Source: Candidatus Aegiribacteria sp.
GTDB taxonomy: Bacteria; Fermentibacterota; Fermentibacteria; Fermentibacterales; JCC-6
DNA length: 64,000 nucleotides
Assembly (NCBI GenBank): GCA_023138735.1
Contig: JAGLOY010000013.1
Coordinates: forward strand, 14,139-78,138
Reading direction: 5' to 3'
The notes under the pieces are model-generated. The model was not told where the DNA came from and searched no databases. It was given only the letters and a program-made list of their open reading frames with translations. The translations under genes and the position numbers were made by a program. Below are positions 18,348 to 31,800 of this stretch, in pieces; position 1 is the first letter of the stretch, and each line of letters begins with the position of its first letter.

Positions 18348-19277
18348 TTAATCTTCCTGAAATCTTCTCACTCTTGTATGGCACGAGGTCCCGATTCCGT
18401 TCTTATCATAATAGTTCTGGTGGTACTCCTCCGCAGACCAGAAATCACCTGCAGGGACCAGCTCTGTGACAACTTCATATCCCCGGTTTCTGAGAATCTG
18501 AACCAGCTCTTCCAGCACAGCGAGCTGTTCGTCTGTTGTATAGAATACTGCTGATCTGTATTGGGTTCCCGTATCTACGCCCTGGCGATTGACCTGGGTC
18601 GGGTCATGAATCTCGAAGAAGATCATAGCCAGTTCATTGAATGAAACAATCGAAGTATCGTAGATCACCCTAACTGTTTCAGCGTGTCCTGTGGCTCCCG
18701 AACACACTTCACTGTAGGAGGGATTATCGGTTGTTCCTCCCATATACCCGGACCGGGCTTCAAGAACTCCCGATGTCTGTTCGAAAGCACTTTCCATTCC
18801 CCAGAAACAACCGCCTGCAAAGAAGATCGTCTCTATTCTGTCAGCAGAGATAAAATCCATGGAAATGGAGTTAACACAGTGCCGCGTGTCTGTTTCCGTG
18901 TAACCCTCACCTGTAAATACATGCCCTAGATGACCGCCGCATGAAGCGCAGAGTATCTCGGTTCTCTCGCCGTCCTGATCTACCCTGACTTCAACAGCCC
19001 CTTCTATGGCCAGATCGAAGGCGGGCCAACCGCAGTGTGCAGGGAATTTAGTTTCGGACATGAAAAGGGGGCTTCCACATCTTTTGCAGGTGTATACACC
19101 ATCTTCATACGTGTCTAGATATTCACCGCTGAAGGGGATTTCCGTGCCTCCGTGAACTATAACGTACTCCTCCTCTGAAGTGAGATTTCTGTATTCCATA
19201 TCATCTCCATCCACTCGGGAACCGGTCACACTTATCACTCCGGTCACAATCAGTAGATATGATGCAATTTTCCACAT
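18348..19277 (-). CDS. msrAB: Bifunctional MsrB-MsrA methionine sulfoxide reductase with N-terminal hydrophobic leader
   Basis: CGWPAF, HLGHVF and RHCVNS (MsrB); AGGCFWG, GTQYRS and AEEYHQNY (MsrA); GGAGG before ATG 19277. Confidence 0.95.
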   Translation of the reverse strand: MWKIASYLLIVTGVISVTGSRVDGDDMEYRNLTSEEEYVIVHGGTEIPFSGEYLDTYEDGVYTCKRCGSPLFMSETKFPAHCGWPAFDLAIEGAVEVRVDQDGERTEILCASCGGHLGHVFTGEGYTETDTRHCVNSISMDFISADRIETIFFAGGCFWGMESAFEQTSGVLEARSGYMGGTTDNPSYSEVCSGATGHAETVRVIYDTSIVSFNELAMIFFEIHDPTQVNRQGVDTGTQYRSAVFYTTDEQLAVLEELVQILRNRGYEVVTELVPAGDFWSAEEYHQNYYDKNGIGTSCHTRVRRFQED

Positions 19278-19685
19278 TTTGCTACCTCCATTTCCTATAC
19301 AACACGAATGAGAAGCAGAGGTTCCGCGTGTCATATTTGCTGGAACAGCTTGATTGTTTGCCAATTATGGGACTATTGCTATAATTAATAAATGAGTACG
19401 AAAAGAAGTATCAATTCCGTATTTTTGCAGTGTATGGTTTCCTTCTCGGTCCTGTTGTTTTTCTCTTCATACGGAGATGGGTCCACTGCTCCCGATGAGG
19501 GTTACGAAGTACTACCGGCCCAATCTCCGCAGCCTTCGAGTGAGCGGTTGGTCGGCATCGGAATCACGGCAAGTGAAGATGGTTTCACGAGTTCTTTACC
19601 GACTGGCTCCAGCTGCTTGAGGAAACCGGGGTAAGGGGCTGGTAGATTATTGATCTCATTTAACGTTATCAGATCGGGGAAAATA

Positions 19686-28420: not shown

Positions 28421-28636
28421 ATGGCAATGGTAAAGTGTGCCTGGTGTGACGGAAAGGGAATTGACGACTTTCGGCTCACCTCCCCCTGTAATGTATGCGA
28501 CGGTGATGGTTACGTTAACGTTCCCGATCCTCCAACAGAGTGCGGACGATGCAGTGGTACAGGGAAGATAAGGGACAGTTTCAATAATGAATTCGTAAAA
28601 TGCTCCGGATGCAGAGGATCCGGTTGGGCCAGATGA
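28421..28636 (+). CDS. Small DnaJ-type zinc-finger protein
   Basis: Four CxxCxGxG motifs; AGGAG RBS. Confidence 0.8.
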   Translation: MAMVKCAWCDGKGIDDFRLTSPCNVCDGDGYVNVPDPPTECGRCSGTGKIRDSFNNEFVKCSGCRGSGWAR

Positions 28637-28643
28637 GAGGGAT

Positions 28644-29039
28644 TTGATGAATCACAGAAGATTACTGATGCTGATAGTCGCTTGTGTGGCAGCAGGCTTC
28701 ATGGCCTGCGGGGGAGAAGAACCCCAGGCTGAACAGCAGGTCGAGGAACAGGTTGCAGAAGAGGTCGAAGAACAGGTTGAGGTAATTGAGCCGGAAATGA
28801 CCGAAGAAGAGATGGTAGCCTGGGTAATGGAGAACTGCATCTGCCCTCAGTGCCCCAGCTGGATTCCCGAAGCCGCTGAGAAAGGCGAGGGTGGCTACTG
28901 TGCTGTTGGTATAAGCGCCTGTATCGTCGAAGAGGCTGGCTGTATCTGCCCTGAATGCCCTGTAACCCTTGAGAAGGATTTATTGTGGGGTTACTACTGC
29001 ACTCGTGGTTCTGCTGAGGAGATGATGGCACAGGACTAG
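28644..29039 (+). CDS. Lipoprotein with DUF2769-like Cys-rich domain
   Basis: MAC lipobox; acidic linker; CICPQCPSW...YC..G.S.CI....CICPECPV...YYC.RGS. Confidence 0.75.
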   Translation: MMNHRRLLMLIVACVAAGFMACGGEEPQAEQQVEEQVAEEVEEQVEVIEPEMTEEEMVAWVMENCICPQCPSWIPEAAEKGEGGYCAVGISACIVEEAGCICPECPVTLEKDLLWGYYCTRGSAEEMMAQD

Positions 29040-29565: not shown

Positions 29566-29674
29566 ACCAGACGATCCTCCCTTTCTCCTTTTCATTCGGA
29601 GGAGGAAAGCGCTTCACAATACTCTATTTCCTATGGATAGTTAAGCATCCAGGGATCAGATAATAATTAATTTT

Positions 29675-29693
29675 CAGGTGGAACCTCCACCTG
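29675..29693 (-). promoter_or_regulatory. SECIS-like hairpin for gene B U81
   Basis: CAGGTGGA-GGT-TCCACCTG, 12 nt after the UGA; followed by AAAA, not a U-tract. Confidence 0.7.
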
Positions 29694-29702
29694 TGTTCTG
29701 CT

Positions 29703-29948
29703 CTATCAACTGTCAGATCCGCAGAATCCTTCTGAATCGGCTACAGCAACCCGAACGGTAGGGCATGTCGCTTTGCTCATATTTCCAGGATCACAAGTAA
29801 AACAGAATCCTGTGAAGTCTTCCTCCCTGTTTTCCGCTTTATCACTCCGGGAATCCCGTTCATCAGCTTTTTTCTGAGGGAACCTTCCCTTTCCTCGCAT
29901 CATCGCCATTCAACCGCCCATCATTCCCATGGGCATCTTAACCTGCAT
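29703..29948 (-). CDS. Candidate selenoprotein B (81 aa; U13 and C-terminal U81)
   Basis: AAGGAG RBS; MQVKMPMGMMGG-TGA(29910-12)-MAMM...FCFTC...FCGSDS-TGA(29706-08)-TAG; a hairpin follows each TGA. Confidence 0.7.
29877..29890 (-). promoter_or_regulatory. SECIS-like hairpin for gene B U13
   Basis: AGGGA-AGGT-TCCCT, 19 nt after the UGA. Confidence 0.55.
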
Positions 29949-30262
29949 TATATCTCCTTCTCTTCGGGCCGGTCCCCGGCCTCCTTAAGTCCTCCTCAAC
30001 CACCACCGGGAGCTGTTGGATCACACTTCCCGGGGCATTCAGTTTCCTCCAGTGCCTGCTCAACCAAATTGTCCACCAAAGAACCAATCTCATCCGCTAT
30101 TTCAGCGTATTCCTCTTCAAATCCTATCTCCAGGAAGAGCTTGATCATCTTTCCTGAAAAGGAGATTCTTTCTCTCCGGGAAACTCCCGGAAGTATCTTG
30201 GTTATTCAACATGGAAGCATTGACAGCATTCGATCAAAGCAAATATCCATTGGGATCTCCAT
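29948..30262 (-). CDS. Candidate selenoprotein A (104 aa; U19 and U89)
   Basis: AGGAGG 7 nt before ATG 30262; ...MLPC-TGA(30206-08)-ITKILP...CPGKC..GGG-TGA(29996-98)-GGLKE...EI-TAA, whose TAA overlaps gene B's ATG. Confidence 0.7.
29967..29981 (-). promoter_or_regulatory. SECIS-like hairpin for gene A U89
   Basis: GGCCGG-GGA-CCGGCC, 14 nt after the UGA. Confidence 0.6.
30174..30192 (-). promoter_or_regulatory. SECIS-like hairpin for gene A U19
   Basis: TTCCGGGA-GTT-TCCCGGAG, 13 nt after the UGA. Confidence 0.65.
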
Positions 30263-30429
30263 TACTATACCTCCTACATTGGATTAATATGCTGATTTCC
30301 ATCATCGGATGCTAATGATGAGATTCACCTCAATGCACATGAGAGGATTCCAGGATTCTCTCACTGCGATGGAGCGGGTGAATAGTGACTCTAGCTCTTA
30401 GATCAAAAGTCCGAATCGTGGATTCATCA

Positions 30430-30500
30430 AAAGAGCAAAAACCCCCTTGAAGGGGGCATTCACGATTTGGCTGGATGCTTGTCTGAGAGATGGAACACTT
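30430..30500. repeat. Outermost att-like junction (hairpin + core + P-arm)
   Basis: CCCCCTTGAAGGGGGCATTCAC...TGGCTGG..GTCTGAGAGATGGAACACTT; the left flank matches the sequence next to the tRNA (about 46250-46318). Confidence 0.75.
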
Positions 30501-30816
30501 CCAGCACCTGATTAGATAATACGGTGCTAAAAAGTAGTGACAGGTCAATCCGTACCTGCCCCGCCACCGGCCGCGAGCACAACATCATAGGTGCTCTGAT
30601 ACACGCCTGAATTACTGTTGACCCGTCGAAACAGGCGGAGTATGATGTAAATGATTGCTGACAATGAGGATTTGGGTCACATAATAGTTTTCAATGAGGT
30701 TCCAGGCGATGATGTGTATTCCAGTATCCCATAGCCAGATCTGTGAATCTGTAAGCAGGAAGAGAATCATACTGGGTTACAGATCATCCGAACACAAACC
30801 GGGAGGGATTGAACAG

Positions 30817-31295: not shown

Positions 31296-31375
31296 AAGGG
31301 CGCCTAATAAGCGCCCTTCTTTATATCCATGGCTGGCCATCTGTATGAGAGTTGGAACACTTTTGCTATTTGGTT
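31296..31375. repeat. att-like junction with terminator-like hairpin
   Basis: AAGGGCGC-N7-GCGCCCTT, then TGGCTGGCCATCTGTATGAGAGTTGGAACACTTT. Confidence 0.75.
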
Positions 31376-31800
31376 ACAGGGAATGGCTCAATAAAAGACC
31401 GTAGAGAAAGGAATTGTATTCCGAGCACTGCGCCATTGCCACTAATCCTGATTACGCGAGTCATGAACCTCAATGCGAATACCATAGATCTAGCGACGCT
31501 CCTTTGCATGCCTGTACGTATTTGGCAAAAAATAATCATATATATGAAATCGAACTCTTACAGAGGTGAAGGGACTGATCAAGACAGAGTCTTCGGGATT
31601 CTACTATGTGGGCTGATCACGCAAACCTGGGCAGAAATGCTTGGAATGTGATGGTTACATCTTTATCCTGGAGGGCAACTGGAGGGGTCTGAGTCATTGA
31701 CAAGAGTACTGCGCTACAGCACATTATGCTAGGTTGTGTTGTGGATAGACACCAACTATTCATTCACAGAAACAGTAACCGTTTATCGAAGGAGGGGAAG

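Follow-up and report, generated by a model that had tools for sequence, protein, structure and literature searches.

The accessible part of a 2026 review counts 119 prokaryotic selenoprotein families or subfamilies, most of them with a single selenocysteine (Sec) residue. Here we describe a 64,000-nucleotide stretch of DNA from Candidatus Aegiribacteria sp. (contig JAGLOY010000013.1, positions 14,139 to 78,138; the whole of this stretch is referred to as the window), in which the minus strand between 30315 and 29672 carries a unit of about 640 bases with two small genes, here called gene A and gene B, each containing two in-frame UGA codons that are followed by hairpins resembling selenocysteine insertion sequence (SECIS) elements. 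Among described families, those closest in character are SaoC, KCU-star, MbdU, UXX-star and selenobacteriocin. An earlier reading made from the letters of the DNA alone (the sequence-only reading) could not assign the two products to a known family, and this still holds: no Pfam or NCBIfam model matches gene A, gene B or the gene A proteins that we recovered from a sister genus, and the Pfam search with gene A returned a sub-threshold EGF-like hit only.

SaoC (NF040734) is comparable to gene A and gene B in that it is small, has an otherwise unknown fold and contains a dyad of cysteine (Cys) and Sec. According to the accessible text of 10.1101/2022.07.06.499078, the Sec-containing forms of SaoC end in UGA-UAG and are followed by a perfect 7-bp stem with a GGU loop; gene B, which has a UGA-UAG end and a GGU-loop stem as well, thus finds there a precedent for a C-terminal Sec, and several of the sister-genus gene A proteins end in Cys-Cys, like SaoC. 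The same text gives SaoC a signal or lipoprotein peptide, an average length of 158 residues and a nine-gene neighbourhood for ATP-binding cassette (ABC) transport. Unlike SaoC, both gene A and gene B have N-termini that are not hydrophobic and show no apparent signal peptide when read by eye, and no SAO ABC-transporter neighbours were seen. NF040734 had no match at the locus, and gene A, gene B and four sister-genus gene A proteins did not match SaoC at E values up to 10.

MbdU (NF045648) resembles the pair in that each protein contains two Sec residues and that a CU motif (C, Cys; U, Sec) is present, as listed in the accessible table of the review, but differs in that its 468-position model describes a much larger protein; the best matches of this model in the genome were weak (E 8e-4) and lay on other contigs, with none at the locus or in the NCBIfam scans. 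KCU-star/DUF466 (NF033934; Campylobacter, Helicobacter) is a small protein for which the accessible descriptions give a Cys-Sec dyad at the extreme C-terminus, whereas gene B ends in Ser-Sec or Gly-Sec, the dyads of gene A are internal and NCBIfam returned no match. Selenobacteriocin or selenobiotic precursors (TIGR04081) are likewise small and, as far as the accessible descriptions go, contain two Sec residues and the motif SGUG, with one Sec beside Gly, as is the case here. Unlike these precursors, neither gene matches TIGR04081, and no radical S-adenosylmethionine (SAM) domain was found among the 20 neighbouring open reading frames (ORFs) scanned, that is, 13 within window positions 18348-41091 and 7 adjoining the unit.

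Mammalian thioredoxin reductase carries a flexible C-terminal Gly-Cys-Sec-Gly arm. Most gene A orthologs place the motif G-C-U-G-G on a tail that is disordered in the AlphaFold2 model, like the arm of the reductase. In contrast to the reductase, gene A has no flavoprotein domain, encodes a helical protein of about 100 residues with an extra CU dyad near the N-terminus, and in the window reads G-G-U-G-G, with no Cys before the Sec.

Layout of the unit and the selenocysteine machinery

Re-reading of the sequence reproduced the layout that the sequence-only reading had proposed, including its statement that neither frame is broken by TAA or TAG (0 internal occurrences in either gene). The TAA of gene A overlaps the ATG of gene B (29948-29946) as TAATG, and does so only if UGA 89 of gene A is read through. 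The borders of the unit follow from comparison with L012, a 1,439-nt metagenome contig that contains the entire unit at about 75% identity, with four TGAs and four hairpins in place; similarity between the window and L012 begins near 30315 and ends near 29672, with unrelated sequence on either side. The unit comprises the following features.

30276..30315, minus strand: conserved 5' region of the unit, leader or promoter; L012 homology begins at about 30315 and the DNA further upstream is unrelated (pairwise alignment)
30270..30275, minus strand: Shine-Dalgarno sequence AGGAGG of gene A, read from the sequence, with a 7-nt spacer to ATG 30262
29948..30262, minus strand: gene A, 104 codons and TAA (29950-29948), putative Sec at codons 19 and 89
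30206..30208, minus strand: UGA codon 19 of gene A (A19), motif LPCU; TGA in all 10 intact orthologs for which DNA is available
30174..30192, minus strand: putative SECIS 1, 8-bp stem, loop GUU; stem 13 nt and loop 21 nt past UGA A19
29996..29998, minus strand: UGA codon 89 of gene A (A89), context GGGUGG; TGA in all 10 intact orthologs for which DNA is available
29967..29981, minus strand: putative SECIS 2, 6-bp G+C stem, loop GGA; stem 14 nt and loop 20 nt past UGA A89
29954..29959, minus strand: Shine-Dalgarno sequence AAGGAG of gene B, within the last codons of gene A, 5 nt from the gene B ATG
29703..29948, minus strand: gene B, 81 codons and TAG (29705-29703), rich in methionine (Met) and Cys, putative Sec at codons 13 and 81
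29910..29912, minus strand: UGA codon 13 of gene B (B13), Met-rich motif MGMMGG-U-MAMM; kept in L012
29877..29890, minus strand: putative SECIS 3, 5-bp stem, loop AGGU, the weakest of the four; stem 19 nt and loop 24 nt past UGA B13
29706..29708, minus strand: UGA codon 81 of gene B (B81), putative C-terminal Sec with TAG directly 3'; TGA-TAG kept in L012
29675..29693, minus strand: putative SECIS 4, 8-bp stem, loop GGU, in the 3' untranslated region; stem 12 nt and loop 20 nt past UGA B81

The Shine-Dalgarno sequence of gene A is kept as AGGAGG in L012 and as AGGAG or GGAGG in the sister-genus copies, and gene B of L012 has AAGGA 6-7 nt upstream of its ATG. A simple scan called no sigma-70 promoter on the minus strand at the unit. 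The TGAs were confirmed in an independent assembly, probably of the same sample: Logan contigs of run X1 reproduce the stretch, with 0 differences over the four TGAs. Parts of the unit are also covered by variant contigs from runs X1, X2, X3 and X5; none of the 40 differing places listed falls in a TGA triplet, and 78 more lie beyond that listing.

The genome assembly (3.22 Mb, 192 contigs, 91% complete, 47.8% G+C) contains all components of the Sec machinery that were looked for. selA and selB adjoin on contig C188, a single tRNA-Sec gene with anticodon tca lies on contig C40, and selD (L003, contig C162, 13869-14792, minus strand) carries an in-frame TGA of its own. The open frame of selD extends upstream into a Cys-rich stretch, and its Sec site reads C-A-G-U-A-G. 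Across the phylum SelA was present in 67 of 70 genomes, including all 19 of the sister genus that carries gene A.

Among the long ORFs of this genome, TGA is the most frequent stop (697 of 1,478), from which we conclude that the genetic code is standard; an altered code is ruled out. This stop usage, together with the presence of a tRNA-Sec with anticodon tca and with the frame-specific conservation across two genera described below, makes it barely credible that the frames are products of chance or decay (non-coding DNA or a pseudogene) or that TGA is a sense codon for Gly or Trp, despite the small size of the genes, the lack of the unit in 25 same-genus genomes and one broken copy in the sister genus.

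Gene A and the four hairpins

When 1.84 billion cluster representatives were scanned with gene A, six matches were obtained, of which one was the window's own 50-residue fragment, one was a repeat protein (P0007) and four were proteins of 63-67 residues that run from residue 22 to residue 87-89, i.e. between both TGAs. All database entries of the gene A family are truncated fragments of 50-67 residues. A scan of the genome-contig collection gave no match for gene A, and a single-sequence search of 41 related genomes yielded no ortholog and two weak hits (E about 0.002). The sister-genus orthologs were recovered by profile search only, which, in 70 genomes of the phylum, detected gene A in 9 of the 19 sister-genus genomes and in 0 of the 25 other genomes of the window's genus. 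Eight of the nine copies are intact, and all eight have TGA at both sites; with L012 added, the TGAs at A19 and A89 are kept in nine further intact orthologs. The frame of the ninth copy (L042, genome G055) is disrupted by a frameshift and by a TAG at codon 16; this copy represents either a pseudogene or an assembly error.

Conservation runs across the UGA codons. Gene A of L012 matches residues 1-101 without interruption through both TGAs, and the sister-genus copies open with a conserved 21-residue N-terminal peptide that ends in Cys (Gly in one), followed by TGA and then by L-P-G-V-P-R. At the second TGA the sister genus usually has G-C before and G-G after, so that the context GGGUGG of the window corresponds to G-C-U-G-G in most orthologs; at both sites, Cys stands immediately before the UGA in most orthologs, which would give Cys-Sec dyads. 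Between the window and L012, the ratio of non-synonymous to synonymous divergence (pN/pS) was 0.06 for codons 1-18 (4 synonymous changes and 1 non-synonymous), 0.38 for codons 20-88 and 0.30, from 9 changes, for the tail codons 90-101, as compared with 0.44-2.44 in the other two frames where defined (in frame +1 of the tail the ratio is undefined, there being no synonymous change). Within the sister genus, codons 1-21 gave a pS of 0.74, a pN of 0.135 and a ratio of 0.18, against 1.62 and 1.21 in the shifted frames. Same-frame conservation of the protein is thus clear at the first TGA and weaker at the second, and at the first it argues that both sides are translated in one frame. A further argument comes from codon 22 (30197-30199), which is ATG in the other nine sequences and AAG in the window. 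Window gene A has no ATG, GTG or TTG between UGA 19 and codon 39 and nevertheless keeps the conserved residues 23-38, which could therefore be made only by reading through the UGA. An ATG at codon 22 also occurs in variant contigs of runs X1, X2 and X5; this ATG may encode a conserved Met or offer a fallback start for a Sec-free short form under selenium scarcity.

The four hairpins lie where the sequence-only reading had placed them and with the spacers that it gave. As a control we took 38,300 TGAs that lie out of frame within long ORFs of this genome, counting perfect stems with a 3-4-nt loop that starts 17-25 nt past the TGA. The background rate was 0.41% for the class of SECIS 1 (at least 8 bp, G early in the loop), 0.73% for that of SECIS 2 (at least 6 bp, GG in the loop), 2.0% for that of SECIS 3 (at least 5 bp, GG in the loop) and 0.11% for that of SECIS 4 (at least 8 bp, GG in the loop). 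The hairpins after the four TGAs exceed chance.

SECIS 1 is present in 10 of 10 gene A copies as a 6-8-bp stem with a GUU loop, 93.8% of the alignment cells being paired; in three pairs both partners have changed, and 1 of 500 shuffles attained the covariation score. At the site of SECIS 2 the sister genus has a hairpin of other sequence at the same distance, in which five core pairs are always paired and one is split between AU (4) and GC (4). In two sister-genus copies (L035 and L038) this hairpin lies beyond the TAG stop of gene A, and its conservation is therefore not a mere by-product of coding. SECIS 3 has a 6-bp version in L012, in which one A-U pair has become G-U, and its loop AGGU is common to several reference SECIS elements of the genome. 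SECIS 4 is likewise kept in L012 with one A-U pair changed to G-U, and the homology to L012 ends about here, at about 29672. A role of SECIS 4 as an intrinsic terminator was considered and ruled out, as it has no T-run and no terminator call.

The reference elements came from a genome scan for TGAs flanked by open frame on either side, with a Cys close by and a hairpin downstream. In the alignment of 20 other candidate selenoprotein genes obtained in this way, the loop contained GG in all 20 and started 17-23 nt past the UGA; selD, which was found by homology and not by its hairpin, has a GGC loop 22 nt past its UGA. The hairpins of the unit match the SECIS geometry of the genome's other candidate selenoprotein genes, and the comparison with the genome's own elements thus came out as the sequence-only reading had anticipated, with hairpins of the same type that are kept in relatives and carry compensatory changes.

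Several observations weigh against Sec in gene A. ATG is found at codon 22 in 9 of 10 copies, 6 nt past the UGA, where it would permit termination and re-initiation, and gene callers annotate the family as proteins of 63-67 residues. The tail past the second UGA is short and variable (4-23 residues), and its best-kept part, GQVT, is encoded by the hairpin. SECIS 1 has the loop GUU, compared with GG in 20 of 20 reference elements, and the reference set was itself filtered for hairpins, a filter that required G early in the loop, not GG. Finally, searches of 1.84 billion representatives, 5.8 billion clusters, 70 related genomes and the contig collections turned up no confirmed Cys homolog for any of the four sites, while the accessible part of the review states that almost every selenoprotein has homologs with Cys. 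The usual argument from Sec/Cys pairs is for this reason not usable; of the two kinds of homolog that the sequence-only reading named as support, with Cys or with a conserved TGA, those found have TGA. P0007 was tried as a Cys-form homolog and dropped, since its repeats inflate the E-value: taken singly, a repeat reaches no more than 27-31 bits, and the probability from hhalign was 3.9%. This protein has 469 residues, is encoded on a 1,506-nt contig and consists of seven tandem repeats of about 67 residues that resemble residues 9-58 of gene A and have Cys in the place of U19.

On these grounds one might suppose that no UGA is recoded and that the locus holds four short ORFs (of 18, 50-67, 12 and 67 residues), with the hairpins acting in pausing, attenuation or RNA stability, which is how automatic annotation reads every family member; or that gene A alone consists of a short upstream ORF with re-initiation at the ATG three codons past the first TGA. 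We regard each of these two explanations as very unlikely. Re-initiation leaves residues 23-38 of the window unexplained, same-frame purifying selection continues on both sides of both gene A UGAs, and Cys precedes the UGA at both sites in most orthologs. In addition, 4 of 4 UGAs are followed by hairpins of SECIS geometry, for which the joint chance is about 1e-9 if the four are independent, and SelA is all but universal in the phylum. We therefore hold that both gene A sites very probably encode Sec, and read gene A as a new, conserved family of two-Sec selenoproteins without known Cys forms. Tools for selenoprotein discovery mostly rely on Sec/Cys pairs, and methods of this kind may, as the deep-Sep paper points out, miss families without Cys homologs; the gene A family would be such a case. 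Corrected annotation would alter gene models in at least 10 species-level genomes.

Gene B and its two UGA codons

Three lineages of gene B are known, namely the window, L012 and a pair of proteins without DNA (P0004 and P0011). L012 is the only other gene B locus with DNA, and both TGAs (B13 and B81), the TGA-TAG ending and both hairpins are kept there (2 of 2 genes). The two genes differ at one synonymous position in a 35-nt block around UGA 13 and by one 3-nt indel, which is in frame. P0011 begins at the residue right after the first TGA, and P0004 and P0011 both stop right before the last. A single-sequence search with gene B against 70 genomes gave no ortholog and one weak hit (E 0.009), and no convincing relative was found in the 70 genomes or in the genome-contig and viral-contig collections; a match of 21 residues in a Muribaculaceae record of the genome-contig collection was rejected as spurious.

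For gene B, the most direct alternative to recoding is that its UGAs are ordinary stops while gene A is a two-Sec selenoprotein: a 12-codon leader ORF would end at the first UGA, re-initiation at the adjacent ATG would produce a protein of 65-67 residues that ends at the last UGA, and the TAG would serve as a back-up stop with a stabilising 3' hairpin. This explanation draws on the very points that tell against Sec in gene B. An ATG lies directly 3' of the first UGA (TGAATG) and database entries begin there; over most of the length pN/pS does not single out the frame (0.61 in frame compared with 0.56-0.61 in the other frames); the first hairpin has only 5 bp, in a class with a 2.0% background; tandem stops arise by chance; DNA is available from two lineages only; and none of the sister-genus loci with gene A has gene B. 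Set against this, the 12 codons before the UGA and the Shine-Dalgarno sequence before the first ATG are kept in L012, whereas no Shine-Dalgarno sequence precedes the inner ATG, and Met-richness spans the UGA in a context that is unique in the genome, UGA 13 being, out of 4 hits, the only UGA with at least six Met within 12 residues on either side. Both hairpins have GG loops, show the 20-24-nt spacing of the genome's SECIS elements and are kept in L012; the terminal one belongs to the class with the lowest background, 0.11%, and is free of a T-run; and UGA-UAG followed by a GGU-loop hairpin is a signature of C-terminal Sec described in the accessible text of 10.1101/2022.07.06.499078. On balance we consider the ordinary-stop explanation rather unlikely.

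Given the weak coding signal and the single other DNA lineage, gene B is to be called probable, not proven. We think it reasonably probable that both of its sites are Sec, and gene B would then be a probable companion of gene A with two further Sec residues. The proposal of two selenoproteins thus holds for gene A as a conserved family, and for gene B as a probable case supported by two DNA sequences in which pN/pS does not single out the frame. For the locus as a whole, we favour as likely a two-gene selenoprotein unit in which all four UGAs are recoded. Gene B would also be one more case in which the 3' untranslated region directs a C-terminal Sec.

Proposed function and genomic setting

The AlphaFold2 model of gene A, built from a 13-row alignment, has helices at residues 5-23, 29-48 and 53-72, with a predicted local distance difference test (pLDDT) of about 90 at residues 30-70, and a disordered tail from residue 77 that carries the second Sec. 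Foldseek found no match to this model in the PDB better than E 1.7, and the predicted fold is a generic helical bundle. The model of gene B is disordered (pLDDT 47).

The favoured two-gene selenoprotein unit would be a self-contained transcription unit for two small cytoplasmic selenoproteins, read by ordinary bacterial SECIS-directed recoding as judged from its sequence. Ribosomes would start at the strong Shine-Dalgarno sequence and ATG of gene A, and SelB with Sec-tRNA(Sec) would bind the hairpins and insert Sec. The predicted product of gene A is a protein of about 104 residues with a three-helix core, the LPCU dyad near the N-terminus and the second Sec on a disordered C-terminal arm. Gene B would be translationally coupled to gene A via the TAATG overlap and recoded likewise, with one Sec in the Met-rich motif and one as last residue, the latter directed by the hairpin in the 3' untranslated region.

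A metal-binding or redox role, as put forward in the sequence-only reading, is still suggested by composition. As the most likely role we tentatively propose selenenylsulfide redox chemistry, or else that the proteins bind a soft metal or metalloid (Cu(I), Hg(II), As(III)) and hand it over, with the Cys-Sec dyads, the Met-rich stretch and the terminal Cys-Cys of several orthologs as putative ligands. The Cys-Sec dyad is, in the accessible text of 10.1101/2022.07.06.499078, relatively rare and linked to mercury and organometal chemistry. A more speculative and rather doubtful idea is that gene A and gene B form a selenium-obligate relay, without a sulfur-only version in the databases searched. 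The three-helix scaffold of gene A would carry two mobile Cys-Sec selenenylsulfide centres, LPCU and the thioredoxin-reductase-like G-C-U-G arm, and would deliver electrons, or a soft metal or metalloid (Hg, Cu, As), to gene B or accept them from it, gene B being a disordered Met/Cys/Sec peptide in which the Met-flanked Sec and the C-terminal Sec would act as ligands. The pair might then form the cytoplasmic component of a selenoproteome that is unusually large, mostly secreted and characteristic of a small sediment phylum.

Twenty candidate selenoprotein genes of the genome were inspected (L013-L032, on contigs C3, C13, C14, C22, C53, C63, C68, C79, C110, C113, C122, C137, C139, C152, C154, C168 and C177), for which support consists of paralog conservation and Pfam matches only. 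Seven of the 20 match Pfam and 13 have no match at 1e-5; the families are FG-GAP_3 (5 candidates), Por_Secre_tail (3) and FlgD_ig (1). The candidates form paralogous groups with a common TGA position and hairpin. At least eight FG-GAP paralogs have a common G-U-C-T-G site and nearly the same hairpin, candidate families of about 200 and of about 250-350 residues have Sec adjoining Cys, and several candidates have N-termini resembling signal peptides and sorting tails of the type IX secretion system (T9SS). The genome seems to hold many, possibly dozens of, unannotated selenoprotein genes for secreted proteins. Our literature search on selenoproteins of cold-seep phyla or on secreted FG-GAP/T9SS selenoproteins found nothing relevant. 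The record selenoprotein gene count cited in the deep-Sep paper is 46 genes; if the candidate selenoproteome is confirmed, the phylum would be among the most selenium-dependent bacteria known.

The unit had no match in 25 same-genus genomes, which marks it as an accessory cassette. Same-genus homology of the left flank stops near 29624 (G020), and that of the right flank resumes near 30599 (G024 and G003). In the sister genus gene A stands without gene B; upstream of it, as read by eye, lies a large peptidase-like ORF or a 254-residue ORF resembling the formylglycine-generating enzyme, and downstream a convergent three-gene cluster of TonB, ExbD and ExbB. Around the unit in the window we found a DnaJ-type zinc-finger protein, a DUF2769 protein, a cytochrome-b561-like membrane protein, lipoproteins and a phosphatidylserine-decarboxylase-like protein, neighbours that offer no functional link to it. 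The first two are small Cys-rich proteins encoded on the plus strand at 28421-28636 and 28644-29039, convergent on the unit: a 71-residue DnaJ-type CXXCXGXG zinc-finger protein and the DUF2769 protein, which has a probable signal peptide. The left-flank block with both Cys-rich genes is kept in G020, which is without the cassette, and parts of it match other same-genus genomes. A fused MsrB-MsrA methionine sulfoxide reductase is encoded about 10 kb from the unit (18348-19364, minus strand), with no link to it shown. Short intergenic elements of about 50-110 nt at 30396-30500 and 31329-31396 recur several times on the contig and in same-genus genomes, and the former includes a terminator-like hairpin at 30457-30441.

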